Shown: one piece after another, positions 1 through 32,755 of the stretch
Position numbering within the stretch: the stretch's first letter is position 1
How the letters are laid out: every line of letters begins with the position of its first letter
Source of the DNA: an uncultured Gemmatimonadales bacterium
GTDB taxonomy: Bacteria > Gemmatimonadota > Gemmatimonadetes > Gemmatimonadales > GWC2-71-9
Assembly: GCA_963844035.1 (NCBI GenBank)
Contig: CAWJMT010000009.1
Coordinates: 32,001 to 96,000 of the forward strand
Length of the DNA stretch: 64,000 nucleotides
Reading direction: 5' to 3'
The notes under the pieces: model-generated
What the model was told of the DNA's origin: nothing
The model's database searches: none
Seen by the model: only the letters and a program-made list of their open reading frames with translations
Made by a program: the position numbers and the translations under genes

Positions 1-271
1 CGCGCAGGATGTCGGCATCGGTCGGGATCTGGCCGCTCGCGGTCGTACGGATCTTGTAGATCGCACCCGTGAAGTCGCGGGGACGCGGCTGCATGTACGT
101 CGCCGCGTAGCCCTGTCCATCCCCGGCGTCGCCATGGCAGCCAGCACACCAGCTGACATAGACGGCTTTGCCCTTCGTCGTGTCCTGGGCCGCGAGGGCG
201 GGCGAGGACGCGAACAGCAACGCCGCGCCGAGGCCGACCGCCCAACCGCCCAGCCGCCTAGTGGCCGCCAC
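1..271 (-). CDS. Secreted c-type cytochrome, 3' end runs off the window
   Basis: Manual translation from GTG 271: signal peptide, then YVSWCAGCHGDAGDGQGYAATYMQPRPRDFTGAIYKIRTTASGQIPTDAD (CxxCH). Confidence 0.85.
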   Translation of the reverse strand, partial: MAATRRLGGWAVGLGAALLFASSPALAAQDTTKGKAVYVSWCAGCHGDAGDGQGYAATYMQPRPRDFTGAIYKIRTTASGQIPTDADILR

Positions 272-1064
272 TTTTCTCTCCTCCCTCATGCTCCTCCTCC
301 ATGACCCGCGGCTTCCACCCTGTCTGCTGGTAGATGAAAATGATCACCTGCCAGATCTCGCGCTCGGTGAGGAAATCTTCCCACTTCGGCATCGCCGAGT
401 TCCAGGGCGTGGCCTCGCGCGGCAGTCCGGGGCCGCCCTTCGCCACGCGCCAGAAAACGAAGCTCTCGCTGAGCTGGGCGATGGTGCCGTTGTCCTGGAA
501 GTTTGCCGGGAGCGGATTGAAGCCGTGCGCATAGTGGCCCAGTCCATCCAGGTGGTCGCCATGGCACGCCATGCAGTTCTGATAGTAGATGCGCTTGCCT
601 GCTTCGGTATGCGCGGCGAGCGACTCGGCATGTTCCCGCAGGGGGTTCTTGAGCGCCTTCATGTTGAGCGACTTGCCGCGGAAGGTGATCTCGGTCGGCG
701 GCGCCGGGTGAATCGAGCGCAGGTTGGGCGGCGCGGACACGGTCGTGCGGGCCTGCGCCAGGGTGATCCACCCGATCAACAACGTCAAGACCCCGAGCAC
801 GCCGCCGCGCAGCATCCGGAGCCGGGGCTCGATCAGCAGCGCGGCGATCGGCTCCTGGAAACGCGCCCAGCGGTCCTCGCTGTCGCTGACGTAGATCAGC
901 ACGCCCACCAGGACGGTCAACATGTACTGCAGGGCGACGCTCTTCGGGACGATCGCGCTCCCGGGAAGTGCGGGAACGAGCACTTCGATTACGAGGAAGG
1001 CAAGCACCATGATCCCCAAGGCCTGCCAGAACGGATGAGCGAGGTAGCCTCGGTTCTTGGTCAT
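258..1064 (-). CDS. Membrane-anchored monoheme cytochrome c
   Basis: ATG 1064 overlaps the upstream stop (ATGA); 3 N-terminal TM helices; CMACHG; distal Met in WNSAMPKW. Confidence 0.85.
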   Translation of the reverse strand: MTKNRGYLAHPFWQALGIMVLAFLVIEVLVPALPGSAIVPKSVALQYMLTVLVGVLIYVSDSEDRWARFQEPIAALLIEPRLRMLRGGVLGVLTLLIGWITLAQARTTVSAPPNLRSIHPAPPTEITFRGKSLNMKALKNPLREHAESLAAHTEAGKRIYYQNCMACHGDHLDGLGHYAHGFNPLPANFQDNGTIAQLSESFVFWRVAKGGPGLPREATPWNSAMPKWEDFLTEREIWQVIIFIYQQTGWKPRVMEEEHEGGEKSGGH

Positions 1065-1858
1065 TTGTGACTCGCTAGGTAGGCAACCAGCGCCTCGAGC
1101 TGCGTCGCGTTCATCCGGGTTCCGAAGTCCTTGGGCATGACGCCCGCCATGGTTTCGAAGCCTTTCGTGATGGACCACTCCGGGTCGAGGATCTTGTGGC
1201 GGATCGACGCCGCATCGCGTCGCGCGCCGAGGTGGGCCAGGTCGGGACCGAGCTCACCACCCTCACCGTCGACCTTGTGGCAGTTACCGCACTCCGCCTC
1301 TTTGATGATCGCTTTGGGATCGGTGCTGCCACCGGCAAACGCGGCCGGTGCGCCCCCTGCTGCCGGAGCTGCCCCACCAGCCGGCGCAGCGGACTCGAAG
1401 TCCGCGGCAGTCACGTCCACGGTGCCCCCGAGCGACTCGAGGTACGCGACCAGGGCCCAGATCTGCTCGGGAGGCATGAGCTTCGTGATCACCGGCATGA
1501 TCGGCTGGTAGCCTGGTACGACATAATCCGCGGGCTCGGCCAGCGATTCGTACAGATACTTCTTGCAGTTCTCTCCCGATTCGCGCTTGCCGCAGCGCGC
1601 GCCGATCGGCCCGGTGCCCTTTTCGTCAGTGAGCAGGTTCGGAGCGCGCGACCCGAGGCCGTGACACGCGGTACAGCCACCGACGCCGTTGAACACCTTC
1701 TCTCCCGCAGCGGCAAGCTGCTCGGGGGTGGCGTTCGCACCGAGGCTCAGCTTCTGCGGCACCTCGGACTGCATCTGCGGAATCTTGTTGCAGATCAGCG
1801 TATACACGAACAGCGTGCCGAGCACGACGCCGATCACCTTCAGGTTAGTGGCCCACAT
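1061..1858 (-). CDS. Membrane-anchored diheme cytochrome c
   Basis: N-terminal TM; CTACH and CGNCH separated by an Ala/Gly/Pro linker; IMP and VMP Met ligands. Confidence 0.9.
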   Translation of the reverse strand: MWATNLKVIGVVLGTLFVYTLICNKIPQMQSEVPQKLSLGANATPEQLAAAGEKVFNGVGGCTACHGLGSRAPNLLTDEKGTGPIGARCGKRESGENCKKYLYESLAEPADYVVPGYQPIMPVITKLMPPEQIWALVAYLESLGGTVDVTAADFESAAPAGGAAPAAGGAPAAFAGGSTDPKAIIKEAECGNCHKVDGEGGELGPDLAHLGARRDAASIRHKILDPEWSITKGFETMAGVMPKDFGTRMNATQLEALVAYLASHK

Positions 1859-3554
1859 TGCTGCCTCCCTTCCCTGCGGTGCCGAACGTGGACTTTTCGG
1901 CGAGCCCGCCGAGCCAGAACACGAAGCCGACCAGGCTGAGGAAGATCAGCACGCTGAGGCTGATCATCTTGGAGGCGTAGCCGAGCGCGGGTGTCGCCGC
2001 ATACTTGCTCGTGTCTTCCATCACCTGCCACACGTGCCAATACTGCCGGATCCCCGAGCGGGCGAAGCCCATGAGCGCCATGAGCCACGTGAACGTGACG
2101 GCGAGGATGAAGAGTGCATACTGGGACCGTGCGGGCATCTTGCCCCACTGGATTTCGCCGGCCGACTTGGCGCCGCGTCCCATCATGCTGTCGATCACGG
2201 TGACGAACACGATGCAGCACAGCACCGCGCCCACCTGGTAGACGCTATAGCCGATCCGGACGATCGCCTCGACGAAGTAGCCCCGGATCCCGTAGAAGAG
2301 CACGATCGCGGCGGCGATGGCAAACATGGCGCCCTGAATCTTGGTCCCCGTTTTCTCCCATGGCACGACGAGCTGTTTGTTGCCGCGGCGATACATGAGG
2401 AACGAGAGGAACGTCGCCAGGATCATCAGATTGACGGCGGTGTTCTTGGCGCTCATCACGCCGAGCGCGCCGAGCAACGGATGGTGCGAGCCCCCCATCG
2501 CGGCGAGCTCCTTGGTGTCCGCGATCATCGTATGCGGTGTTCCCCACACGATCGCGCCGAGCACGAGCACGATGAGCAGATACTTGATGTACGGGCGGAA
2601 CCGCTCGGCGCCTGGGATACGGCCCATGCCGATCCAGAGGTAGTAATTGCCGGCCAGGAACAGCACAGCGATGAGGAACGCCTGGACCACCCAGAGCCAG
2701 CTCATGAAGCCGCCCATCATGGTGATGCCCATCGACTGATCGTACATGTAGATCTCGCGGCCCAGCCAGTACCCGGCGAAGGGCAGGACGATCAGGGCGG
2801 CCATGGCGATGAAGTTGCCGACGTAGCCCATCCAGTCGTAGTGCGCGCGCTCTTCGTCGGTCTTGGCGGCGAGGAACCGATAGCTTGCATACGCCGCCGC
2901 GATCGCGCCGCCGAACACGACGTTCGCAATGATCCGGTGGATGTTGATCGGCATCCAGCTCGCGTTGGCGATGGCGTGCCAGAGTTTGATCGTGGTGGGG
3001 TCGGTGCTCGCGTCGATGTCGCGCGGGGGCGTCATCATGTAAGTGAGCCACGAATTCGCGATGAGCATCACGACCGTGCCCCACACGTTGAGCATGATGC
3101 CGAGCACCCAGTGCACGATCTTGGCGCGGCCGTACTTCCAGCGGTCCCACCCGTAGTAGTACAGGTAGAGGGTGAAGGACTCGAAGAAGAACAGCCCGGC
3201 GTACAGCCACATCGACGGTCCGAAGATCGTCGTCAGGTACGCCCAGAACTTGGCGTACAGGGTGGCGAGCAGGAACACGAGGATCGCCCCCCAAATCGCG
3301 GTGGCGCTGTACGCCACCAGCAACAGGCGGGTGAATTCCTTCGCGAGGCCGTCGTACTTCGATTCGCCGCCGAAAATCCCGATCGCCTCCGCCACGACGG
3401 CAAACATCGGCACGCCGAGGACGAAGGCGGCGAACATCAGGTGCACCTGGGCAGCGATCCAGATCGCTCCCCGTGACCCGACCACCGGGAACTCCCCGTA
3501 GGAGCGGATCGAATCCGCGACCGCGGTGATCATCAATAGGCCGTCAGCCATCAA
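1845..3554 (-). CDS. Cytochrome bd-like oxidase subunit I (CydA-like, non-canonical)
   Basis: Polytopic membrane protein; AQVHLMF, FFFES, NSWLTYMMTP, NIHRIIAN and MGFARSGIRQYW align to CydA motifs; no obvious Q-loop. Confidence 0.85.
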   Translation of the reverse strand: MMADGLLMITAVADSIRSYGEFPVVGSRGAIWIAAQVHLMFAAFVLGVPMFAVVAEAIGIFGGESKYDGLAKEFTRLLLVAYSATAIWGAILVFLLATLYAKFWAYLTTIFGPSMWLYAGLFFFESFTLYLYYYGWDRWKYGRAKIVHWVLGIMLNVWGTVVMLIANSWLTYMMTPPRDIDASTDPTTIKLWHAIANASWMPINIHRIIANVVFGGAIAAAYASYRFLAAKTDEERAHYDWMGYVGNFIAMAALIVLPFAGYWLGREIYMYDQSMGITMMGGFMSWLWVVQAFLIAVLFLAGNYYLWIGMGRIPGAERFRPYIKYLLIVLVLGAIVWGTPHTMIADTKELAAMGGSHHPLLGALGVMSAKNTAVNLMILATFLSFLMYRRGNKQLVVPWEKTGTKIQGAMFAIAAAIVLFYGIRGYFVEAIVRIGYSVYQVGAVLCCIVFVTVIDSMMGRGAKSAGEIQWGKMPARSQYALFILAVTFTWLMALMGFARSGIRQYWHVWQVMEDTSKYAATPALGYASKMISLSVLIFLSLVGFVFWLGGLAEKSTFGTAGKGGSNVGH

Positions 3555-4828
3555 CCGTTAGCCTCCGTGAAGAACGGCCGCCGCTTGGAGAAATCAATCG
3601 GCATCGCGCTGCGTACCTCCGCCAACATGTCGAGCGTGATTTCGCGCACGCCCTGCTTGCGCGCAAAGTCTTCCATCCGCTGCATCACGACGCCGCGCAC
3701 GAACGAGGGAATGCGCTGCATGCGCTCCCGCGCCGCCGGGCTCCAGGCGAGTACCGGCTCGAAGTCCGCCCCGTACATCACGGCCCGTGCCGGCTCGATC
3801 AGCGTCGCGCCGGGCCGCGGCTCGTAGTCGCACGACGGATCCTCGGCCAGCACATCACCGGTGACTGCAAATGCGCGCGCGCGGCAACCGCCGCATACCT
3901 GCCGGTATTCGCAGCTGCCGCACTTCCCACCCAGGGTGCCCTCGCGCAGCTGGCGGAACAGCGGCGACGCGCGCCAGATCTCGGCGAACGACCGCGTGCG
4001 CAGGTCCCCGGCGACCTCCGGCATGTAGGGACAGGGCGTGAGCTTGCCGTCGGGGGTGATGCGGCAATACTGCGTCCCGCACGGGCAGCGCGTCTCGTAA
4101 TTGAGGACCGGCGACTCGGGGTCCGCCTGGTGGACGTGCCGCATGAAATGCGGCGCGCACTTCGAGCGGACCAGCATGCGGCCGCGGAAGTCGCGCTGCC
4201 AGCGGGCCAGGTCGGCGAGCACGGACTCGTATTCGGAGGGCGAGAGGTCGGTCAGTCCCGCTCCCCGCCCCGTCGGCACCAGGAAATAGCAATTGAAGGC
4301 GACCGCCCCCTGCTCGGCCGACCATTGCACCAACCGCGACAGCTCATCGCGATTGCCCTTGGTGACGGACGTCTGAATGATGAAGTCGAGCTTGTGCGAG
4401 CGGAGCCGGCCCAGAGCCGCCTGCGTATCCGCGAGCGATCCCTTGAGGTGGCGAAAGTTGTCGTGATACGACGGGCGCAGCGAGTCGACGCTCACCGCAA
4501 CGCCGCGTACGCCAGCCTCCTTGAGGGCGGCGATCCGCTCGTCGGTGAGCAGCGTGCCGTTCGTCCCCACCACGACCGTCGCGCCCCGCTCGGAGGCGCG
4601 CCGGGCGATCACGGTCAGATCGTCGCGCAGCAACGGCTCGCCGCCGGAGAGGATCAGCAGGGGGGAGGGATTCACCGCGAGCAGCTCGTCAACGATGCGC
4701 AAGCAGGTCGCCGTGTCGAGCTCCGACGTCGCCTGCTCCGTCGGGCCGGCGGAGATATAGCAGTGGGCGCACTCGAGATTGCAGCGACGAGTGAGATTCC
4801 ACGCAACTACGTGCGGTACGAAGTCCAC
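3551..4828 (-). CDS. Radical SAM/SPASM protein (AhbC/AhbD/NirJ-like) with C-terminal PCP_red-like domain
   Basis: WNLTRRCNLECAHCY, SGGEPLLR, KCAPHF; SPASM Cys set CPCG...PCPY...CGSCEYRQVCGGCRARA...DPSC; C-terminal WSPAARERMQRIPSFVRG. Confidence 0.9.
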   Translation of the reverse strand: MDFVPHVVAWNLTRRCNLECAHCYISAGPTEQATSELDTATCLRIVDELLAVNPSPLLILSGGEPLLRDDLTVIARRASERGATVVVGTNGTLLTDERIAALKEAGVRGVAVSVDSLRPSYHDNFRHLKGSLADTQAALGRLRSHKLDFIIQTSVTKGNRDELSRLVQWSAEQGAVAFNCYFLVPTGRGAGLTDLSPSEYESVLADLARWQRDFRGRMLVRSKCAPHFMRHVHQADPESPVLNYETRCPCGTQYCRITPDGKLTPCPYMPEVAGDLRTRSFAEIWRASPLFRQLREGTLGGKCGSCEYRQVCGGCRARAFAVTGDVLAEDPSCDYEPRPGATLIEPARAVMYGADFEPVLAWSPAARERMQRIPSFVRGVVMQRMEDFARKQGVREITLDMLAEVRSAMPIDFSKRRPFFTEANG

Positions 4829-6844
4829 TCAGTCGCCCGCCTGCTCCTGCAGCATCCGCTCCATGGCTTCCTTCGCCTCTTCCGGCTTCATCCCCTTGAA
4901 CTCGACCGGACACTTGCCGGCCTTTTCTTCGATGTCCCGGATGGGGCAGCGCGTGATCCCCTGCGCCTTGGCTTCTTCGATGAAGGCCCGCATCTCGGGC
5001 GTCATGCCGTCGCGTCCCTCGGCTTCGGCGCGGATCTGCTTGGCGCGGAGCTCGGTGAACATGACCATCATCGTCTCGACGTCGAACTCGTCGGCCTCGA
5101 TCATCTTCTGCTTGTTTTCGTCCATCACCATGGTGGTGACGCGCCAAATGTCGTGGCTGCGTGCGAACCGCTCGACGGTGTTGCGCGCCAGCGGCCGCGC
5201 GATCAGCGGAACCGCCTGCAGGCGCTGCCACCCTTCCTCCGTCCAGATGATCGGATCGGTGGCCACGCGCGCCCGCCGGCTCACGTTTCCGGTCACCGGA
5301 CACTTCACCTCAATCTCCGCGGTGGCCGGCACGAGATCGCTGTCGTGCCCCTGGACCTTGGTGGTCTGGAGCTGCTCGGTCGCCTTCTCCTCCGCGAGCA
5401 CGATCTCCTCTGCCGTGCCGATGCCCATGATGAGCTGCATATGGGTCGGCAGCAGCTTCTTGATCGCTTCGTCGAGCCACTTGTTGGTGATGATGGTTGC
5501 GGCCCCGCCGGTCTGCTCGAGCGTGTACTCCTCGACGGCGCGCCGCGCGATGCCCTGCGCGAACGGCGGCACGCGAAGGATGCGCACTTCGGCATCGGGC
5601 GCCCACGGCATGCCCGCCTGGCCATCTTCTTCAATCCAGGGAATGTCTTCCGGACGGATGCCCACGGTGCCGATCATCAGGGTGTTGCACGGCGCGAGAC
5701 GAACCAGGTTCTCCGCCTGCGAGCCCAGCTGGGTGTTTTCGATCCGGTGCGCTCCATGGCGCGACAGGACGAGCAGTGACGGCTTGATCTCCTCCGCCCA
5801 CTGCATCACCACCTGGAAGGGCTTCCCAACGAGGATCTGCGTCTTGATGGGAACGTCGGGGAACTCCTGGGCCATCACCTCGGCGCGCTTCAGGTTCGCC
5901 TGGCAGAGCTTGAGCAGCCCCTTGTCGATGATGTTGTTGTGGAGCTCCTCCTGCTCCTCGAACTTGAACACCTTCGAGGCCTGGTAGGACAGCACGTCTT
6001 TGATGTTGTTGAAGACGACGTGGTGATACTCCACGTCGAATGCGCTGCAGACATAGAGCGAGCCGCCGAACTCCTTGGCCAGCTCGAGTGCGACGCGCAT
6101 CGCCTTGTAGCTGTAGGACGAGCCGTCCACGCACACCATGTAGCGACCATCCGCGAACGGCTTGTCGTCGCGGACGATCAGCAGATCCTTTTCGATGCCG
6201 CGCAGGATGCGCGCCACGACCCCACCGAGCTGCGAGAACGGCTGACGGCCGAGGCCGTGCGCGCCGATCGTGAGCAGGTCATACTGGCGACCCGACGTCC
6301 CCACGAGACGCGCCGCGGTGTCTTCCTCCTCCGCGATGAGCCGGCCGTTTTCGCCGACCTGGACGTCGCTGCGCACGGTGGCGCCGCCGTCGTATGTGGC
6401 GGCGCGATTTGGATCGAACCCGATCAGCCCGGGCAAGCGGCCCGCGCCGCGGTTCACTTCCGCGACGATTTCCTCATAGTTGATCCCCTCGAGCAGCTGG
6501 CGCGTCAACGCCACGCCCGCCGCCTCGCACCGCTTCCCGACCTGATCAAGGAAGCTGTCGGCGATGAGCTGCAGGCCCTTCTCGATCAGCTTGTCGTGGA
6601 TCTTGCGCTGCTTCTTGATTTCTTCCGGCGTCTGAAACTGCGCGGGGAGACCGGTCTCGAGTTGGCGGAAGCGAACGTCGTGGAGGCGTGCGGCGTAGAC
6701 ATGGTTACCGGTGATGCGCCCGCCGGACTGACGACACAGCTCAAGCGCCCGATCAATCGCCCAATCCGAATGCTGTGAATTGTCGACGGGCGCAAATATC
6801 TCGCGATACACCGGCACCTCGGGCGCTAGAGTCATGTCGGGCAC
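4829..6844 (-). CDS. Tandem universal-stress-protein domains plus two PCP_red-like domains
   Basis: PVDNS/CVDGS USP starts; GAHGLG...LGG and RHG...LGSQAE motifs; WAPDAEVRILRVPPFAQG and WTEEGWQRLQAVPLIAR. Start may be ATG 6835. Confidence 0.85.
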   Translation of the reverse strand: MPDMTLAPEVPVYREIFAPVDNSQHSDWAIDRALELCRQSGGRITGNHVYAARLHDVRFRQLETGLPAQFQTPEEIKKQRKIHDKLIEKGLQLIADSFLDQVGKRCEAAGVALTRQLLEGINYEEIVAEVNRGAGRLPGLIGFDPNRAATYDGGATVRSDVQVGENGRLIAEEEDTAARLVGTSGRQYDLLTIGAHGLGRQPFSQLGGVVARILRGIEKDLLIVRDDKPFADGRYMVCVDGSSYSYKAMRVALELAKEFGGSLYVCSAFDVEYHHVVFNNIKDVLSYQASKVFKFEEQEELHNNIIDKGLLKLCQANLKRAEVMAQEFPDVPIKTQILVGKPFQVVMQWAEEIKPSLLVLSRHGAHRIENTQLGSQAENLVRLAPCNTLMIGTVGIRPEDIPWIEEDGQAGMPWAPDAEVRILRVPPFAQGIARRAVEEYTLEQTGGAATIITNKWLDEAIKKLLPTHMQLIMGIGTAEEIVLAEEKATEQLQTTKVQGHDSDLVPATAEIEVKCPVTGNVSRRARVATDPIIWTEEGWQRLQAVPLIARPLARNTVERFARSHDIWRVTTMVMDENKQKMIEADEFDVETMMVMFTELRAKQIRAEAEGRDGMTPEMRAFIEEAKAQGITRCPIRDIEEKAGKCPVEFKGMKPEEAKEAMERMLQEQAGD

Positions 6845-6965
6845 ACACCGCTCTCTCGCCGAGCTCCAGACGAACTCGGTCCTGACAGAGATCCAGCAGC
6901 TGTGTGCTCAACCGCGTCGACCCGTGGGCCGCCGCATGAGCTATGGTTCGATTTTGACCGCCGCG

Positions 6966-6994
6966 AGTATGCTCCGTGCAGCCTGACCTGTCAA
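6966..6994 (-). promoter_or_regulatory. Putative sigma70 promoter for the USP/radical SAM/oxidase operon
   Basis: Minus strand TTGACA-17 nt-CATACT in the intergenic gap. Confidence 0.55.
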
Positions 6995-7010
6995 GGCTCG
7001 CGTCCGCGGT

Positions 7011-7256
7011 TCATTTGGGGACGATCTGGCTCCCGGATTCGTCCCACACGGTGATCGCATCCACCGGACACGAATCGCAGGCGCGCAGCAGGCGCTCCCG
7101 CTCGACGGCCTCAGGATCTGTGAAGACAGCGATCGTATCTTCATCCAACTTGAATGCTTCGGGTGCTTCCTTCACACAATCCCCGAAGCCCACACACTGC
7201 TCGCGGTCGATCACTACCCGGAGGCCGTGCACCACGCGCTCGACCAGCTGGCTCAC
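7011..7256 (-). CDS. Small ferredoxin, probably [3Fe-4S]
   Basis: IDREQCVGFGDC...APEAF...ACDSCPVDAI; GTG overlaps the upstream stop. Confidence 0.85.
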   Translation of the reverse strand: MSQLVERVVHGLRVVIDREQCVGFGDCVKEAPEAFKLDEDTIAVFTDPEAVERERLLRACDSCPVDAITVWDESGSQIVPK

Positions 7257-7699
7257 ATCCCCTCCAGGCCGAGCTCCGTGCGCGCGGTGTCCATCACCGC
7301 CGGTGTGATCTCGGTGATCCCGTGGTCCCGGGCGTATTCCGTGTAGATCCGCTTCACCATACCCTTCACGAAGTTCGGTACCTTGGCCAGCCGCTCCACG
7401 GCATCCGCGGACCACGTCACGCCCAAGACGGTTTCCGGCCCCCGGCTCTCGCCGAACGCGTTGTCCTTTCCGGTCGCGACGGTGCTGCGGACCATTTCCA
7501 TCGGTTGCTCGGGCACCGTGCGGCCGCCGATCACCACGCCGAGGGAGCTGACCAGCTGGGTCTCGAACGGGTTCGTGAGCATGCCGACCCGGCGACCGCA
7601 GCCGGGACAGGAGAATGCGATCGCGAGCGTGCCGTCCCCCGGGAGCTCGCGCTCCTCGAACGTCATCTGCCGGTCGCACTCAATGCAGAGAAATTTCAC
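7253..7699 (-). CDS. Zn-ribbon/rubredoxin-like (CxxC...CxxC) plus PCP_red-like domain protein
   Basis: CIEC and CPGC; C-terminal WSADAVERLAKVPNFVKGMVKRIYTEYARDHGITEIT. Confidence 0.8.
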   Translation of the reverse strand: MKFLCIECDRQMTFEERELPGDGTLAIAFSCPGCGRRVGMLTNPFETQLVSSLGVVIGGRTVPEQPMEMVRSTVATGKDNAFGESRGPETVLGVTWSADAVERLAKVPNFVKGMVKRIYTEYARDHGITEITPAVMDTARTELGLEGM

Positions 7700-8478
7700 A
7701 GGCGTGCTGCGAGGTCGGACCAGACGGCATCCGACGGGTGAAACGGGATGCGGGCCAGGACCGGGATAGCGAACTCCGCTGCCAGCGAATCGGCGGCATC
7801 GCCCCGAAACTGCTCCCCGACCATGTTCTCGACGATGCCGAGCGCCGGTGCGCCGCGGTCCACCGCCGCCCGCAACGCGCGCCGCACGGCGTCAGCCGAC
7901 TCCGGGGTCGGAATCGTCACGGTGACCACCGCCGGGGCGGTCGGCAACAGGGTGGCGAGCTCCGCGAACCGCGCGATTCCGGGCGGCAAGTCGACGAACA
8001 GCACATCGAGCGCCCCCCACGCAACGTCCGACAAGAACTCCCGCAGCGCGGCCACCTCCTGGGCTCCGCGCCAAATGAAGTTTTCGGCCTCCGGGCCGCG
8101 AAACGCCAACGGGCGGCCGTCCTCCACGAGCTGCGCCATCGAGATCAGGCGTACCCCATCCGCGGCCGTCGCTGGAACCACGGCATCGTCACGCACGGTC
8201 AGCGGGATCCGGGGCGCGTCGAGCAGGCGTGCGGCGGTGGGGCCATTCAGGTCGGCATCGAGCACCCCGACCGCGCGCCCGGCGCGTGCGCAGGCACGGG
8301 CCAAGTGGGCCGTCACAAAGCTCTTGCCCACGCCACCCTTGCCGCTCATGACGGCCACGACACGGCCCACACCGACCAGCCGGGCGCCAACCCTGGCCCG
8401 TTGGGCCACGACCTGGTCCAGCAGCCCCGATGCGTCCGGGTCGGTCAGATCGTGATAGGTGCGAATATTGAGTGGCAT
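7696..8478 (-). CDS. Mrp/NBP35 (ApbC-like) P-loop ATPase
   Basis: SGKGGVGKS, LDADLNGP, IWRG, VDLPPG, GIVENM. Confidence 0.9.
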   Translation of the reverse strand: MPLNIRTYHDLTDPDASGLLDQVVAQRARVGARLVGVGRVVAVMSGKGGVGKSFVTAHLARACARAGRAVGVLDADLNGPTAARLLDAPRIPLTVRDDAVVPATAADGVRLISMAQLVEDGRPLAFRGPEAENFIWRGAQEVAALREFLSDVAWGALDVLFVDLPPGIARFAELATLLPTAPAVVTVTIPTPESADAVRRALRAAVDRGAPALGIVENMVGEQFRGDAADSLAAEFAIPVLARIPFHPSDAVWSDLAARL

Positions 8479-8515
8479 AATCCGCCAATTATGCCTAGGT
8501 TCTCCCCTTCCCGCT

Positions 8516-9016
8516 ATGCTCGACGAACTCAAGAACAAACTCCAAGCCGAAGTCGAGCGGCTCAATCACGAGATCAATTTCATCCTCCCCAAGGAAATTG
8601 AGAAGGCTCGTGCGCACGGTGACCTGCGCGAGAACTCGGAATACAAGGCCGCACTCGAGCGCCAGCAGTTCACCCAGGCCCGCGTGCATCACCTCCGACT
8701 GCGGCTCTCCAAGTTGTCCAGCGTCTCGGAGAAGGACATTCCGCGCGACCGCGTGGGATTCGGGTCGCGCGTGACGGTGCAGGACCTCGACACCAAGAGC
8801 ACCGAGATCTACGCGCTCACGCTCGGAGAATTCGTCGAAGGCGGCGAAGAAGACGGCCAGGAGATCCATGTGTCCATGGCGTCGCCGCTCGGCAAGGCGC
8901 TGCTCGGGTGCAAGAAGGGTGAAACCGTGAACCTCGCGCTCCCGGTGGGGAAGCGACGTCTCAAGATCATGCAGGTCCTCACCGTACACGACTTGGCGGC
9001 CGGCCATCGGGACTGA
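8516..9016 (+). CDS. greA: Transcription elongation factor GreA
   Basis: ARAHGDLRENSEYKAA, SMASPLGKALLG. Confidence 0.93.
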   Translation: MLDELKNKLQAEVERLNHEINFILPKEIEKARAHGDLRENSEYKAALERQQFTQARVHHLRLRLSKLSSVSEKDIPRDRVGFGSRVTVQDLDTKSTEIYALTLGEFVEGGEEDGQEIHVSMASPLGKALLGCKKGETVNLALPVGKRRLKIMQVLTVHDLAAGHRD

Positions 9017-9077
9017 AGCGCCCAGGAACAGGGAAATTCCCGCCTCTTGACTAAGCCGTTTGCCCGGTGTCACTTAG

Positions 9078-9959
9078 TTGCGACAAATGTCATCATTGGC
9101 GGAGCGTAGCTCCGCACGTCGTAACGCCGGGGTCCATTTGGCAGCGCACACTGAGACGAGCGAAGAGCGGTTTTCTTTCACTCCCTTCACGCGGCACGCA
9201 TTCTTCACTGACGTCAACCGTTGGATTGTGGAACGGGTTATCAGCCCGGGCCGACGTACTATCGTGGACCTGGGGTGCGGCCCCGGCGCGGTTACGCAAC
9301 TCATCGTTGATCAGTTGGGAAAGCGGGCCGATGCGCGCGTCATCGGCGTGGATCCGTCCCCTTCAGCACTCGAGAAGGCGCGCGTTGCGGTCACGTCCCG
9401 CGTCGCCGAGTTCGTGGAGGGCAGTGCCGAATGGGTGTCGCGCCTGGTGCCATCGGCCGATGCTGTCATTTTCTGCAACGCGATCCATCTTGTCCCGGAC
9501 AAGGCGAAGGTCATCGGCGAGATCCGCAAAGTCCTGAAGCGCGGTGGCGTGCTGGCCTTCAATTCCACCTTCTTCAACGGTGCCTACGTCGAGGGCACGA
9601 CCGGGTTCTGGCGGCGCTGGGTGGTGCGTGCCGTACAGGTACTGCGCGAGCGCGGGATTGCGGTCAACCACCAGGAACGGGCGACGGCGCGAGAGTTTCT
9701 GACCGCCGAAGACTACGCCAACCTCTGCGTGCAGGAGGGGTTCCGGCGCCCGACCGTCGAACTGCTCCGTGTGGAGATGACGCCCGAGAGCTTGGAAGAC
9801 ATCGGACGGTTCTCGCTCTTCATTGAGGGTGCCCTCCCGGGCGTACCCCTCGAGCAGGGTGCCGACGCACTGAGCGAAGGGCTGCGAAGAGCGCTCGATG
9901 AGACCGGGTTCAGTGGCGTGCCCCGCAACTGGCTCGAGTGCGTGGCGGTCGCGGCTTAA
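9078..9959 (+). CDS. Class I SAM-dependent methyltransferase (start uncertain, 9078-9138)
   Basis: IVDLGCGPG, IGVDPS, VLKRGG. Confidence 0.85.
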   Translation: MRQMSSLAERSSARRNAGVHLAAHTETSEERFSFTPFTRHAFFTDVNRWIVERVISPGRRTIVDLGCGPGAVTQLIVDQLGKRADARVIGVDPSPSALEKARVAVTSRVAEFVEGSAEWVSRLVPSADAVIFCNAIHLVPDKAKVIGEIRKVLKRGGVLAFNSTFFNGAYVEGTTGFWRRWVVRAVQVLRERGIAVNHQERATAREFLTAEDYANLCVQEGFRRPTVELLRVEMTPESLEDIGRFSLFIEGALPGVPLEQGADALSEGLRRALDETGFSGVPRNWLECVAVAA

Positions 9960-11227
9960 CTCAGGACGAATCGCAGCCGGCGGTGCGATTCCCGTAACGC
10001 CGCTTCGACCTGCTCCGGACGGTCACCCCGCGCGAAAATGAATCCCGGATAGCGAGCCCCCTCAGGCAGCGGCACCAAACGTTGCCCGCGGTGGGCCGTG
10101 ATCACTACCGCCTCGACCAGCGGCACCGCACGCGCTTCGTCCAATCCCTCCACCTCGCGCAGTTCCCCTGCCCCGGGAACCGGAATCATCATGACCCCGG
10201 ACGCCTGATCCTCTCGTCGTAACGCCGGCAGGTCCATCGCGAGGGCGTGACACACGATCAGCTCCTCCAGCGACGACCCTTCTTCTTTTCCACTTCCCTC
10301 TTCCCCGACGTTGAATCGAAGCGCCGCGCTGCAGCGCCCGCCGATGGGACGAGCCGCCAGCTCGATCAGCCAGGGACCCCGATCGTTGTGTCGCAGCTCC
10401 GCATGCACCGGACCCTCGACCAGACCCAGCGCCGTCACGGCCGCCTGCGCGGTCGCCGCGATCGCACGCAGCGCACCATCCCCCAGGCGCGACGGGGTTA
10501 CGTAGATCGTCTCCTCGAAGAACGGCCCGTCGAGCGGATCGGGCTTGTCGAACACCGCGAGCACCTGCAGGCGCCCACTGACCAACAATCCTTCGAGTGC
10601 GACCTCGGGTCCCGGGATGAAGTCTTCGACCAGCATGCGCCGCGCGGGCTCACCGCATGCCGCGACTTCGGGGGCGGCCAGGATGGCACACAGGCGGCGG
10701 AACGCGGCCGTGAACCCGGTGGGCGTGTCGGCGCGGATGACGCCACGCGAGGCGGACAGACGCAGCGGCTTGAGCACGCACGGGTAGGCGACTTGGCGCG
10801 CGAGCGCCTCGGGATCGGCGTCGCTCGGGAACACGGCGAAGCGCGGCACGGGGACGCCGGCCGCGGCGAGCCGCTCGCGCTGCTGGTGCTTGTCACGCGC
10901 CGCGAGCGCCGCCTGCACCGGATTGCCGCGCAACTCGAGCCGGGCTGCGACCGCCGCCGCAACGATCGCGGTGTCGTCGTCCACGCCGACCACTCCGGCG
11001 ACCGGATGCTCGAGCGCAAAGGCGCCCGCTTGCTCCGCGGCGCGAGCGGGGTCGGCGAACGCGAGGGTGAGCAGGCCGCTCGGCTGCGCGCTCTCGAACG
11101 TACTGGGGAACTCGGAGGCCACGGTCAACTCGACACCGAGCCGCCTGGCGGCTTCGACGAACGCTGTGGCGCGGTACGTGGTGGTGGGCAACAACAACAG
11201 CAGGCGAGGCGAATCGGGGCGCGCCAT
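9956..11227 (-). CDS. ATP-grasp ligase (L-amino-acid-ligase-like)
   Basis: ARDKHQQR, YPCVLKP, SASRGV, VEDFIPGPE, HAELR, IELAARPIGG. Confidence 0.88.
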   Translation of the reverse strand: MARPDSPRLLLLLPTTTYRATAFVEAARRLGVELTVASEFPSTFESAQPSGLLTLAFADPARAAEQAGAFALEHPVAGVVGVDDDTAIVAAAVAARLELRGNPVQAALAARDKHQQRERLAAAGVPVPRFAVFPSDADPEALARQVAYPCVLKPLRLSASRGVIRADTPTGFTAAFRRLCAILAAPEVAACGEPARRMLVEDFIPGPEVALEGLLVSGRLQVLAVFDKPDPLDGPFFEETIYVTPSRLGDGALRAIAATAQAAVTALGLVEGPVHAELRHNDRGPWLIELAARPIGGRCSAALRFNVGEEGSGKEEGSSLEELIVCHALAMDLPALRREDQASGVMMIPVPGAGELREVEGLDEARAVPLVEAVVITAHRGQRLVPLPEGARYPGFIFARGDRPEQVEAALRESHRRLRFVLS

Positions 11228-11235
11228 AGCGCGCG

Positions 11236-11844
11236 CTACTTCTTGGCGGAGGCGAAGTAGGGGTTGGAGCCGGAGGAGTGGTCGGTCACGTCGACCAACC
11301 CTTTCACTGCGGGCGCGTGCTCATGCAGCATCGCTTCGATGCCCTGGCGGAGCGTTACGTCGGCCATGCCGCATCCCTGGCACCCGCCACCCATCCGCAG
11401 CATGACCACCCCGTCCTGAACGTCGATCAGTTCCACGGCACCGCCGTGGCGTGCGACCATCGGGTTCACCTTGGTCTCGAAGATCTGGGCGACCTGCTCG
11501 TACAAGGCGTCATCGTCCGTCGATGCCGCCGCTGTCTCGCGGGGCGTGACGGCGGGAGCGCTGGTCGAGAGCGCCGCGCGAATCGCCGCGCCGACCGACT
11601 TGCCGATGGCGGTCCAGGGGGTGGGGCTGCGCTTGACGACGGTGACCAGGTTGCCCGACACAACGACCTCGGCAACCCCCGCCGCTGGGATGCCGAAGAT
11701 CGCCGCCGCGAGCGGCGAGCCGGCCGCTTCGTCGGCCGAGGCAAAGCGCCGCACCCCGCCCGCGTGCACCGGCTGGCTGACGAGGAACTTGCAGCGATCG
11801 TTGTCGATCGGCTCGGCGGTAATCTTTACGTCGGGACCGCTCAT
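11236..11844 (-). CDS. NfuA/NifU-like Fe-S carrier
   Basis: Nfu N-terminal domain, then NPMVARHGG...MGGGCQGCG. Confidence 0.9.
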   Translation of the reverse strand: MSGPDVKITAEPIDNDRCKFLVSQPVHAGGVRRFASADEAAGSPLAAAIFGIPAAGVAEVVVSGNLVTVVKRSPTPWTAIGKSVGAAIRAALSTSAPAVTPRETAAASTDDDALYEQVAQIFETKVNPMVARHGGAVELIDVQDGVVMLRMGGGCQGCGMADVTLRQGIEAMLHEHAPAVKGLVDVTDHSSGSNPYFASAKK

Positions 11845-11895
11845 ATAGCGAAGTATGCCCGCCCAGTGTGAAGCGGTCAACGGCGCGGACTGCGC

Positions 11896-14190
11896 TCAAT
11901 CCGCGGGCGCCTTGCTCCCGGTCCGGAGCCGGCGGGCCGCCTCGACCATGTTCCGCAGGGAAGGCAATGTCTCTTCCCACCCGCGCGTTTTGAGGCCGCA
12001 GTCCGGATTCACCCAGATCTGCTGGCGATCGAGTACGTCCCGCATCCGGTTCAACGCATCCACGATTTCGGTCGTGCTCGGAACGCGGGGGGAATGGATA
12101 TCGTAGACGCCCGGTCCGATCTCGTTCGGATACTTGTACTCCTTGAACGCCTCGAGCAGCTCTGAGCCCGAGCGTGCGCTCTCGATCGAAATCGCATCCG
12201 CGTCCATTCGCTCGATCACGCGGATGACGTCGTTGAACTCGCTGTAACACATGTGGGTGTGGATCTGCGTCTCATCCTTGACGCCGGCGGTCGCGAGGCG
12301 GAATGCGTTGACCGCCCACTCGAGATACCCGGCCCACTCGGCCCGTCGCAGCGGCAGCCCTTCCCGTATCGCAGGCTCGTCGATCTGGATCACCCGGATC
12401 TTGGCGGTCTCGAGGTCGCGCACTTCGTCGCGGATCGCGAGCGCGAGCTGTTTCGCGGTCTCCGACCGGGGCTGATCATCCCGCACAAACGACCACTGCA
12501 GGATCGTCACCGGACCGGTCAACATGCCCTTGACCGGCTGGCTGGTTTGCGACTGGGCGTACGAGGTCCACCGCACGGTCATCGCCTTGGGGCGCGACAC
12601 GTCGCCGAAAATGATCGGCGGCTTGACGCAGCGGGTGCCGTACGACTGCACCCAGCCGTACTCCGTGAACGCGAACCCCTGCAGCTGCTCGCCGAAGTAT
12701 TCCACCATGTCGTTGCGTTCGAACTCCCCGTGGACCAGCACGTCGAGTCCGATCTCCTCCTGCACCTTCAATGTCTTACGGATCTGCTCCTCGATGAACG
12801 TGTCGTATACGGCGGGCGTCATCTTGCCGTCGGTCAGCTGGCGGCGCGCGTTGCGCACCTCGGCGGTCTGCGGGAACGAGCCGATCGTCGTGGTCGGGTA
12901 GAGTGGAAGCGCGACCTGCGCGCGGCGCCGCGTGGCGAACGGCGACGTCCTGCGGTAGTCGGGTTCGGCGACCGCCGCCGCGCGCTGCTTCACGGCCGCG
13001 TTATGGATCCGGGTCGACGTACGCCGTCCGGCGATCGCTTTGGCGTTGGCCTCGAGCTCGGCCGCCACTGTGGCGCGACCTTTTCCCACCGCGCGGGTCA
13101 GCGTGGCTACTTCGGTCAGCTTCTGCTTTGCGAACGCCAGCCAGCCTTTGAGTTCGGGATCGAGCTTCTGCTCCAGGTCGAGGTCGACCGGGACATGCGC
13201 CAGCGAGCTGGACGGCGCCACCCACAGATGTTCGGCTCCAGCCTTCGCCTGGCCGCGCTCCAGCAAACTGAGTGCGGCGCCGAGATCGCCCTTCCAGATG
13301 TTGCGCCCATCGATCACGCCCAGCGACAGCACGCGGCCGGAGGGCCACGCCGCCAGCAGCGCGTCGAGCTGCCGTGGCGCGCGCGTGAGATCCACGTGCA
13401 GTCCGGCAGCCGGCAGCGCGAGCGCGGTGCTCAGGTTGTCGTCCAGACCGCCGAAGTACGTCGTCAACAGGATTTTCGCCTTCGGAGCCCGCTCCGCCAG
13501 CAGCGTGTACGCCCTGCGATAGGCGTCCCGTTCCGCCGCCGTCCGATCGAGCACCAGGCAGGGTTCGTCCAGCTGCACCCAGGTTGCTCCCGCCGCAACG
13601 AGGCCGTTCAGCACCTCGACGTAGATCGGCAGCAGGCGGTCCAGCAGCTCGAGACGATCGAACCGCGCGCCGCGGCTCTTCCCGAGGAGCAGGTAGGTCA
13701 TCGGTCCGACGAGCACCGGCTTCGTGGTGATGCCCAGCGCCTTTGCCTCCCGGAACTCGTCGATCGGCTTGGTGGACGCCAGGCTGAACTTCTGGTCGCG
13801 GTCGAACTCGGGCACGATGTAGTGGTAGTTGGTATCGAACCACTTCGTCATTTCCATCGCGATGACGTCGCGCCCCGCCCGCTGCGCGCCGCGCGCCATT
13901 GCGAAATACGTGTCCAGGTCCACCTTGCCGCCCGTCCACCCGTAGCGCTCGGGGACTGCCCCGACCAGCGCGCTCGTATCGAGGACGCGGTCGTAGAACG
14001 AGAAGTCATTCGACGGAACCAGGTCGATTCCCGCCGCCTGCTGGAGGCGCCAGTGCGCCGCGCGCAATTCGGATCCCGCTCGCAGCAAGTCCGCCTGGGA
14101 CGCTTTGCCGCTCCAATAGCTTTCGGTGGCGCGCTTTAGCTCGCGTTTCGCGCCGATCGACGGGAACCCGAGTGTGTGAGAGGTTGGCAT
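11896..14190 (-). CDS. metE: Cobalamin-independent methionine synthase
   Basis: EMTKWFDTNYHY, TTTIGSFPQT, HTHMCYSEF, WVNPDCGLKTR. Confidence 0.98.
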   Translation of the reverse strand: MPTSHTLGFPSIGAKRELKRATESYWSGKASQADLLRAGSELRAAHWRLQQAAGIDLVPSNDFSFYDRVLDTSALVGAVPERYGWTGGKVDLDTYFAMARGAQRAGRDVIAMEMTKWFDTNYHYIVPEFDRDQKFSLASTKPIDEFREAKALGITTKPVLVGPMTYLLLGKSRGARFDRLELLDRLLPIYVEVLNGLVAAGATWVQLDEPCLVLDRTAAERDAYRRAYTLLAERAPKAKILLTTYFGGLDDNLSTALALPAAGLHVDLTRAPRQLDALLAAWPSGRVLSLGVIDGRNIWKGDLGAALSLLERGQAKAGAEHLWVAPSSSLAHVPVDLDLEQKLDPELKGWLAFAKQKLTEVATLTRAVGKGRATVAAELEANAKAIAGRRTSTRIHNAAVKQRAAAVAEPDYRRTSPFATRRRAQVALPLYPTTTIGSFPQTAEVRNARRQLTDGKMTPAVYDTFIEEQIRKTLKVQEEIGLDVLVHGEFERNDMVEYFGEQLQGFAFTEYGWVQSYGTRCVKPPIIFGDVSRPKAMTVRWTSYAQSQTSQPVKGMLTGPVTILQWSFVRDDQPRSETAKQLALAIRDEVRDLETAKIRVIQIDEPAIREGLPLRRAEWAGYLEWAVNAFRLATAGVKDETQIHTHMCYSEFNDVIRVIERMDADAISIESARSGSELLEAFKEYKYPNEIGPGVYDIHSPRVPSTTEIVDALNRMRDVLDRQQIWVNPDCGLKTRGWEETLPSLRNMVEAARRLRTGSKAPAD

Positions 14191-31907: not shown

Positions 31908-32755
31908 GAACAGCGGCGGTCGGGCGGTCGGCCGGTCAGGCGGTCGGGCTCGCGTTGATGCTGTTGACCGGCGGACCGCCTGACCGCCTGACCGCTCAAC
32001 GGGCGGACTCACTTCGCCGTGCAGCGCTCAGCGTCGCCCAAACTCGGCCCGATTCCGCGCGCGCGATCCTGCGGCGACTGCTCGCCTCCCTGCCGCCAAG
32101 CGACTCGCTCTACCCGGGCGTGCTGTTGACGGCGGCGCGGCTCGCAGCGGATGCGCCGACAGTCGCGACCTACCTGCAGCGCGTCGCGATCGAGTATAGC
32201 CGCTCGGTGTGGGCCGACTCGGCACTGCTCCTGCTCACTCAGCTCAACTTCGCCCAGGGCGACCCCGCCGCCACCGTGCAGGCGACCGAACGCCTGCGGC
32301 GTGACTACCCCGATTCGCCGCTTAAGCCCAGGGGCGCGTTCTGGGGTGCGCGGGCGTACTTCGATTTGAAGGACGATGCACGCGGGTGCGCCTTGATCCA
32401 GGAGGCCCTGGCTGGCGCCGGCAGCGACGTCGAGTTCAGAAACCAGGTGTTATTCTACGCGTCACGCTGCACCAACCTGCCCCCGCCGGTGGCCGTGGTG
32501 CCGCCGGACAGCGCTGGTCTCCCTGCGGGGTCGACGTACGCCGTCCAGGTTCTCGCCGTGAAGAGCGCACCCCAGGTGGACGACATGTTGAGCCGCCTCA
32601 AGGTCATGGGTTTCGCGGCGCGGGTGGTGCGTGACACCAGCGGCCTCTTCAAGGTGAGAGTCGGCCGCTACGCCACTCGCGAGGAGGCGCAGCAGACGCA
32701 GCGTAATCTGAAGACGCGGCTGGGAGGCCAGCCTTTCGTAGTGGTCGAGCCGTGA
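31904..32755 (+). CDS. TPR-like plus C-terminal SPOR-domain protein
   Basis: YAVQVLA...FKVRVGRYATREEA. Confidence 0.82.
   Translation: MRTAAVGRSAGQAVGLALMLLTGGPPDRLTAQRADSLRRAALSVAQTRPDSARAILRRLLASLPPSDSLYPGVLLTAARLAADAPTVATYLQRVAIEYSRSVWADSALLLLTQLNFAQGDPAATVQATERLRRDYPDSPLKPRGAFWGARAYFDLKDDARGCALIQEALAGAGSDVEFRNQVLFYASRCTNLPPPVAVVPPDSAGLPAGSTYAVQVLAVKSAPQVDDMLSRLKVMGFAARVVRDTSGLFKVRVGRYATREEAQQTQRNLKTRLGGQPFVVVEP
31916..31995. repeat. 4+4 inverted octamer array (GCGGTCGG-type)
   Basis: GCGGTCGG GCGGTCGG CCGGTCAG GCGGTCGG ... TTGACCGG CGGACCGC CTGACCGC CTGACCGC. Confidence 0.8.

Follow-up and report, generated by a model that had tools for sequence, protein, structure and literature searches.

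A putative haem-finishing gene set with PCP_red domains next to an OR-N-type bd-like oxidase gene in an uncultured Gemmatimonadales bacterium

Why do three genes next to a putative respiratory oxidase gene carry a domain known from the chlorophyll synthesis proteins BchB and ChlB? This question is raised by contig CAWJMT010000009.1 of an uncultured Gemmatimonadales bacterium (assembly GCA_963844035.1). The window that we analysed is 64,000 nucleotides long (contig positions 32,001 to 96,000, forward strand), and coordinates refer to it unless another locus is named. The oxidase gene encodes a CydA-like subunit. Five helper genes precede it, encoding an Mrp-type ATPase, a small CxxC protein, a ferredoxin, a tandem universal stress protein (USP) and a radical S-adenosylmethionine (SAM) enzyme with a SPASM domain. 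We consider it rather probable that these five genes form a dedicated module for finishing haem and delivering it to the OR-N-type bd-like oxidase encoded directly downstream. The features are the following:

7696..8478, minus strand: P-loop ATPase of the Mrp/NBP35 family (Mrp; PF10609, 155.8 bits), with a conserved N-terminal extension and without CxxC in this copy
7253..7699, minus strand: CxxC...CxxC ribbon protein (CxxC-PCP), with a C-terminal PCP_red domain at 7280-7414
7011..7256, minus strand: single-cluster ferredoxin of 81 aa (PF13370, Fer4_13, 49.4 bits)
4829..6835, minus strand: protein with tandem USP domains, PCP_red at ~5450-5605 and at 5111-5245, three Cys-Pro motifs in the tail and six near-invariant His residues
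3551..4828, minus strand: AhbD/NirJ2-like radical SAM-SPASM enzyme, with a C-terminal PCP_red domain at 3611-3745
1845..3551, minus strand: CydA-like subunit of OR-N ('bd-like') type, the likely client (PF01654), with no adjacent cydB
1061..1858, minus strand: membrane-anchored dihaem cytochrome c (PF00034, two stretches)
258..1061, minus strand: membrane-anchored cytochrome c with one haem; the window start cuts into a third cytochrome c gene

The eight genes follow each other in this order, tightly packed and all on the minus strand. The radical SAM stop codon and the oxidase start codon share base 3551 (TGATG), in agreement with the overlap given in the preliminary description of this DNA. 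The Mrp/CxxC-PCP and CxxC-PCP/ferredoxin junctions overlap as well. Before the window start, the contig adds the third cytochrome c and then an aa3-type oxidase set, which comprises coxB, A, C and D (the cox names are our own reading) and a haem O synthase of the UbiA family. The same run also contains a gene in which ChdC is fused to a Rieske domain, hemE and one gene resembling hemY. Residues are counted from 8472 in Mrp and from 6829 in the USP protein.

The preliminary description reported four copies of one motif on three co-oriented genes and likened the motif to the C-terminal domain of BchB/ChlB. Both observations hold, and the positions agree. Whole-protein scores against PCP_red (PF08369) are 50.1 bits for CxxC-PCP, 61.7 bits for the USP protein (two stretches) and 47.9 bits for the radical SAM enzyme, all above the Pfam cut-off for whole proteins (32.5 bits). 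Across the 3.47-Mb genome, a search in all six frames gives exactly four matches, at 3611-3745, 5111-5245, 5513-5605 and 7280-7414 of the window. Taken singly, three of the four copies are above the cut-off; the first USP copy reaches 29.3 bits and covers model positions 1-31 only, and it forms the same three helices in the structure model. Pairwise, the copies are identical at 11 to 17 of 47 residues. The C-terminus of CxxC-PCP has PDB matches only to BchB/ChlB chains and to the lone PCP_red structures 2KRU and 2L09. Only one of 14 control genomes has PCP_red above the cut-off. Thus the domain is of the same family as in BchB/ChlB (PF08369; 2KRU, 2L09, 2YNM). Unlike there, it is repeated on non-photosynthetic proteins, with one to six copies on homologues, and the copies move between proteins. 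Radical SAM tails can also carry three to four copies, and stand-alone four-copy PCP_red proteins exist.

The likely client matches CydA only over part of its length, the PF01654 match being confined to residues 27-272. The N-terminal helices and the His19-type haem ligand are retained, cytochromes c are encoded by the next genes and there is no CydB partner. His37, His147, His205, His357, His506 and Glu124 are invariant wherever aligned in 91 homologues. More specifically, His357 and His506 are extra invariant residues, and a Tyr stands opposite the first proton-channel Glu (aligned to 5DOQ). A crude hydropathy scan gives 11 transmembrane segments, where N1/N2 proteins have 14 and lack a quinol site, and similarity to solved CydA fades past residue 272. 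With its conserved residues, the protein fits the OR-N family, tentatively subfamily N2. It resembles this family (OR-N2/NIDE0901/TO_1; Murali, Gennis and Hemp 2021) in the long CydA, the N-terminal haem helices and the lack of cydB. According to the accessible portions of the published accounts, flanking cytochromes c and an operon without a second CydA are further likenesses, and N2 commonly occurs with no second CydA (Murali et al. preprint). Those portions describe no maturation genes, whereas here a helper set adjoins; also unlike those accounts, aa3-type oxidase and coprohaem pathway genes follow. In excerpts of other papers (PMC12342949, PMC10839748, PMC10579370, PMC5029188), bd-like enzymes figure as the main, though unconfirmed, oxidases of Nitrospirales and Nitrospinota. 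The bd-like oxidase of Manganitrophus is TO_1, according to the source excerpt.

Does the helper set accompany this oxidase elsewhere? We surveyed 251 Gemmatimonadota genomes, drawn evenly, counting CydA at E <= 1e-30. The tallies here and below include unpublished genomes: G180; G279, G297, G308 and G350 (double positives); and G055, G095 and G155 (ChdC and CoxA counts). PCP_red is found in 83/251 genomes, mostly in exactly four copies, and this CydA in 72/251. All 72 CydA genomes also have PCP_red, and 168 genomes have neither. There are 11 genomes with PCP_red only. Nine of them carry it inside bchB, and in G178 the contig ends within the radical SAM gene. The remaining one, G050, has a divergent set (L087, L108; G050:C4) with 35-44% identity on a 9.6-kb contig and no CydA match, pointing to transfer or contamination. 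In a second phylum, that of G251 (record labelled Rokubacteria), CydA occurs in 63 of 101 genomes and PCP_red in 69; all of the 63 are within the 69, and 32 have neither. The association of the set with a bd-like oxidase, predicted in the preliminary description, is therefore seen across genomes of two phyla (72/72 and 63/63). We give no co-occurrence statistic because related genomes do not count as separate cases and because of the linkage between the genes.

Gene order tells the same story at closer range. The relatives compared were the best 80 of 501 GTDB stretches encoding one, labelled Gemmatimonadota (78), Rokubacteria (1) and unclassified (1). The radical SAM gene and CydA come after the USP gene in 62/62 loci having 2.5 kb downstream. 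Upstream of USP, the 66 loci having 2.5 kb contain Mrp in 62, CxxC-PCP in 63 and ferredoxin in 64 cases. One locus is a case apart: L048:8194-22013 (G251) carries a Gemmatimonadota-type helper set with 69-82% identity, nested among those of Gemmatimonadota in the tree, and the CydA and cytochromes behind it are more distant (35-61% identity). This could reflect transfer of the whole set in one piece, or else a chimeric assembly.

Linkage extends further, since CoxA follows in 39/39 loci with 9 kb of flank. It could be argued that the set serves another respiratory component, for instance the aa3-type oxidase or one of the c-type cytochromes, and tracks CydA only through a shared block. A close CoxA paralogue occurs in 74/251 genomes and 71 of these are among the 72 carriers, as compared to 239/251 genomes with any haem-copper oxidase subunit I, our control. 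Moreover, in several loci of the second phylum USP and the radical SAM gene come after cox genes, ~15 kb from CydA, with the CxxC-PCP gene elsewhere. However, three genomes have the close CoxA with neither PCP_red nor CydA. Locus L114 joins the set, CydA and cytochromes (in the order USP, radical SAM, membrane gene, Mrp, CxxC-PCP, CydA) without a cox gene in 20 kb. Nitrospira retains the USP-radical SAM pair and mostly lacks haem-copper oxidases (PMC10579370); close relatives of one metagenome radical SAM carry Nitrospira or Nitrospirota names. These cases weaken the aa3 oxidase as sole client, while the c-type cytochromes are never separated from CydA in our comparisons. Overall, we find a client other than the bd-like oxidase quite improbable.

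What could the set do for the oxidase? The best-scoring families of the radical SAM enzyme are AhbD (TIGR04545, 302 bits) and NirJ2 (TIGR04055, 299 bits), both with a cut-off of 500. Scores against NirJ (TIGR04051, 187 bits, cut-off 515) and AhbC (TIGR04546, 166 bits, cut-off 650) are also below the cut-offs. None of 28 homologues reaches the AhbD cut-off, the range being 273-340 bits. The enzyme has a CX3CX2C motif and the full AhbD SPASM spacing, CX20-33CX17CX36-37CX2CX5CX2CX17-35C (PMC10452713), with an exact match at residues 224-333; other SPASM enzymes are similarly spaced. With the first gap relaxed, 139/147 related frames match. In a FastTree tree of 37 sequences, 31 PCP-bearing radical SAMs form one clade (support 0.946). 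The nearest outgroup is the AhbD-type gene of a Paenibacillus ahb cluster, and TIGR04053 lies outside. The outgroups came from plasmid records: single sequences of AhbD type and AhbC type, and two each of TIGR04053 and of peptide maturases. No characterised AhbD is among them. The kinship with AhbC, AhbD and NirJ suggested in the preliminary description is hence upheld as to AhbD-like spacing and best scores, but the enzyme stands outside the curated AhbD family. Best-scoring families, the eight-cysteine SPASM spacing and the nearest outgroup link it to AhbD/NirJ2. Scores of about 300 bits, the PCP_red tail, the tie to one oxidase and the lack of AhbA/B in the five carrier genomes examined set it apart, and its activity is a prediction.

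An enzyme of the SPASM type might instead modify a protein, for example by introducing a cross-link or a residue change in the CydA active site, with PCP_red as the substrate recognition or docking part. Most solved relatives are indeed peptide or protein maturases (PqqE, SkfB), and the extra His357 and His506 of CydA, together with the Tyr opposite the first proton-channel Glu, fit this reading. The haem-type models nevertheless score 302 and 299 bits versus 166 for GeoRSP and 114 for PqqE, and the His and Cys-Pro motifs of the USP protein as well as the link to ChdC favour haem. We therefore give protein modification little probability.

The genomic context of haem synthesis is consistent with a haem substrate. 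A ChdC-family gene is present in 66/72 CydA carriers as compared to 41/179 other genomes, and ferrochelatase in 5/5 carriers examined. AhbA/B (PF17805) was found in none of five carrier genomes and in 3/14 controls. From these genes, carriers seem to use the coproporphyrin route; therefore, coprohaem would be available and haem b could already be made. AhbD without AhbA-C is known, and it accompanies the coproporphyrin pathway in other prokaryotes (PMC13564367). AhbD next to ChdC is a known anoxic alternative (PMC13564367, PMC10114771, PMC5746218); Haloferax volcanii uses ChdC for aerobic and AhbD for anaerobic growth (PMC5746218). Could the radical SAM enzyme then be a synthase that makes haem b for general use without oxygen and stands in for ChdC at low oxygen, lying near the oxidase only for co-regulation and with its Fe-S clusters serviced by the other proteins? 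These precedents, the enrichment of ChdC in carriers and the JGI label 'AdoMet-dependent heme synthase' on some homologues agree with it. Against it, 41 of the 107 ChdC-family genomes lack such a CydA, and among these only G178, with its broken contig, shows the set. In addition, all 28 homologues remain below the AhbD cut-off. We regard this explanation as unlikely.

The proteome of Nitrospira marina, compared in air and at 5.6 µM O2 (PMC8115632), bears on the same point. Spectra of the 699-aa UspA protein numbered 112/132/125 in air and 132/97/128 at 5.6 µM O2. The adjoining 460-aa SPASM enzyme gave 38/43/44 and 32/18/27, a 306-aa Mrp-type ATPase 43/38/37 and 24/19/13, and the 257-aa 'Proto-chlorophyllide reductase subunit' beside the ATPase 53/45/49 and 50/45/46, respectively. 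The UspA and SPASM proteins have the same lengths as in loci L141 and L134. In the excerpted data, the likely counterparts (IMG genes 2597410680-81 and 2597410652-53) are abundant and none of them rises at low O2, while four other UspA proteins do. That the likely radical SAM falls and USP stays flat argues against a mere anoxic back-up role, with the limit that 5.6 µM is not anoxia. A further 159-aa 'Proto-chlorophyllide reductase subunit' of N. marina (IMG 2597407147) has bd-like_2 at a distance of two genes and the most abundant bd-like oxidase at a distance of eight, as given in the same excerpts.

With a mean identity of 83% in the 80 loci, the tandem USP protein is very conserved and ranks first among the 11 genes compared; it should be noted that the loci were chosen as best USP matches. 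Its model (pLDDT 82.9) shows a tandem USP fold with helical inserts, and Foldseek matches it to Rv2623 and TTHA0350 (E ~1e-14). The G-2x-G-9x-G-S/T motif, which is associated with ATP binding, occurs twice in the family consensus, and the window copy deviates at one position per domain. Across 119 USP sequences, His43, His50, His78, His269, His297 and His361 each show a conservation of 90% or more, and His50/His78 and His269/His297 have the same 28-residue spacing in each USP half. The three Cys-Pro motifs of the tail are kept in 90/91 full-length copies of this phylum. In 46 distant USP tails, 22 Cys-Pro motifs lie outside CxxC knuckles versus 9.2 ± 3.0 (maximum 19) in 200 shuffles. The conserved His and Cys-Pro motifs suggest haem handling. 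Among 60 distant homologues scanned, 57 carry one to six PCP_red copies, 11 have rubredoxin-like matches and one has a PNPOx-like match. In P0154, P0156 and P0205, USP is fused to a related N-terminal domain, with a weak PNPOx-like match in one of them; the PNPOx fold can bind flavin or haem.

The roles of Mrp and CxxC-PCP seem to differ from what had been proposed. Mrp has a deviant Walker A ATPase core (PF10609) with GKGGVGKS invariant or nearly so; together with the Fer4_13 match of the ferredoxin, this confirms the two genes as named in the preliminary description. A C-terminal CxxC is the cluster-binding motif of Mrp/ApbC. The window Mrp has one cysteine and no CxxC, the motif is kept in 30/60 aligned homologues, and the protein is below the ApbC and MrpORP cut-offs. 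Because CxxC is absent, this copy does not bear out the standard form of the earlier idea that Mrp supplies iron-sulphur (Fe-S) clusters. It shares the PF10609 core and GKGGVGKS with the Mrp/ApbC/NBP35 Fe-S carriers, and it is unlike them in its special N-terminal extension and in the loss of CxxC, which half of the aligned homologues have lost as well. In CxxC-PCP, C5, C8, C31 and C34 are invariant in 58 sequences, and 12 of these, all divergent ones, have a Cys-Pro-Phe motif ahead of PCP_red. Such a predicted four-cysteine partner recalls the N-terminal cysteine domain of Nbp35. An ESM Atlas search with the CxxC domain gave 0.84 at best, a lead only. Upstream of the set, greA, a methyltransferase, an ATP-grasp enzyme and nfuA (8498-11853) are kept in close relatives. 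nfuA is mostly present where Mrp lacks CxxC and could substitute for it, a pattern confounded by kinship.

A complex model of the Mrp dimer with CxxC-PCP, ATP and Mg included, scored 0.67 versus 0.02 for the best control. The mark for such models is reached by 116/157 solved and 2/215 mismatched pairs, and is a rough guide only as alignments and ligands were our own. Between runs, 83% or more of the contacts recur, and the pLDDT of the partner does not fall below 74. On the Mrp side, the modelled interface is made of conserved residues, Q20 and E145 among them; on the other side it uses residues 1-84 of CxxC-PCP. The model supports binding of the Mrp dimer and CxxC-PCP through the CxxC domain. 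In the preliminary description PCP_red was a docking tag that assembles the complex. A confident pair with Mrp is predicted, but it docks through residues 1-84 and not through PCP_red. PCP_red was accordingly rejected as the Mrp-docking tag: none of its residues is named in the interface of the one pair modelled, though residues not named there are uncertain. Since the interface is without a named PCP_red residue, the copy number varies and the copies are shuffled between proteins, a one-to-one docking tag is unlikely. PCP_red is more likely a repeatable module for tetrapyrrole handling or avidity than a specific docking tag.

In the ferredoxin, the second Cys of CxxCxxC is replaced by Phe, and for this reason we take it to be likely of the [3Fe-4S] type. 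It was not seen beside the set outside Gemmatimonadota, except in L048.

Metal-binding features could be given more weight, so that the set would be for metal or redox maintenance, for example the repair of Fe-S clusters or the loading of copper, and would not act on tetrapyrroles at all. Many USP homologues contain fused rubredoxin-like knuckles. In Nitrospira-type and related loci, the gene after the radical SAM or the USP gene is CopD-like, and NIDE0901-like oxidases have been suggested to hold a copper site. This reading leaves the AhbD-like enzyme unexplained, and the CopD matches are mostly below the cut-off, which makes the explanation very improbable. The small CopD-like membrane gene stands with the set at L141:13520-14035, L178:15213-15674 and L146:12092-12538. 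An unnamed membrane family with no Pfam match stands beside the set at L114:9893-10285, L128:9200-9679 and L085:5423-5812. The window has neither of these two small membrane genes.

Taken as a haem-finishing and delivery module, the set would work as follows. The radical SAM enzyme would take coprohaem, supplied by the coproporphyrin pathway, and decarboxylate it in the manner of AhbD, giving haem b or a partly modified haem. The tandem USP protein would hold the haem through its paired His and Cys-Pro motifs and hand it to the oxidase. The Mrp dimer and CxxC-PCP are predicted to be one ATPase unit; its metal site would be provided by the four cysteines invariant in CxxC-PCP, and this unit may serve the three Fe-S clusters of the radical SAM enzyme. 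The ferredoxin would be an optional electron carrier. There are precedents for radical SAM proteins that work for a single respiratory enzyme by delivering or tailoring its haem, namely HemW and the haem d1 maturation cluster with NirJ (PMC10114771). HemW belongs to the HemN type, and unlike the set here, HemW and NirJ are without USP, Mrp or PCP_red partners in the accessible parts of published accounts. It is also possible, although we think it unlikely, that OR-N oxidases use an undescribed haem. This haem would be made from coprohaem by the radical SAM clade and inserted by the USP scaffold and the split Mrp ATPase, with PCP_red as a general tetrapyrrole domain outside photosynthesis.

Several observations weigh against a dedicated haem module. 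We took Cys-Pro as a sign of haem regulation or binding, and a literature search for this returned nothing. Substrate, product and haem binding are all predictions. The chemistry of the radical SAM enzyme could differ from that of AhbD, as it scores 302 bits versus a cut-off of 500. Six genomes of the second phylum have PCP_red with no CydA match, and G276 of the same phylum has four CydA-like matches versus one PCP_red match. Among 23 metagenome loci of at least 15 kb, of Nitrospira type, the radical SAM gene adjoins USP in 18 and CydA stands beside the set in only 3. Co-occurrence is partly block inheritance, because the genes are physically linked in Gemmatimonadota. The N. marina counterparts were picked by size, order and label only (PMC8115632, excerpts). 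Finally, G058, G084 and G125 have a second, split CydA paralogue (~52% identity) with no adjacent helper set. This paralogue has its own cytochromes at L089:7857-13209, L090 and L091. A stand-alone USP tail beside it in L089 was rejected, being a weak match with no corresponding reading frame.

Cofactor kits that serve a single respiratory enzyme are known, and we did not find this composition in the literature searched. The preliminary description knew of no account of such a system; likewise, we found no published description of the gene set in the open-licence literature, with supplements on OR-N operons lying outside that scope. OR-N oxidases are proposed as the main oxygen reductases of nitrite and manganese oxidisers, experimentally unconfirmed according to the excerpted literature. 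Should they depend on a haem module of their own, the genes of this set would be the ones to express along with the oxidase in order to obtain a first working enzyme. If this is true, the cofactor content of OR-N oxidases becomes directly testable, and PCP_red outside chlorophyll synthesis and the very conserved USP family would each gain a function.

Minor observations concern the surroundings of the set. The respiratory and haem supercluster just outside the window lies at G000:C9:22135-30540 (locus L220). The third cytochrome c (window 1-290 and G000:C9:31181-32289) is split over different frames and is a single frame in relatives; ferrochelatase (G000:C4:394341-395241) is likewise split across frames and intact in relatives. 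Both are likely assembly errors. Further upstream, at 11896-14190 of the window, a gene for a 764-aa protein resembles cobalamin-independent methionine synthase MetE, as recognised by eye.

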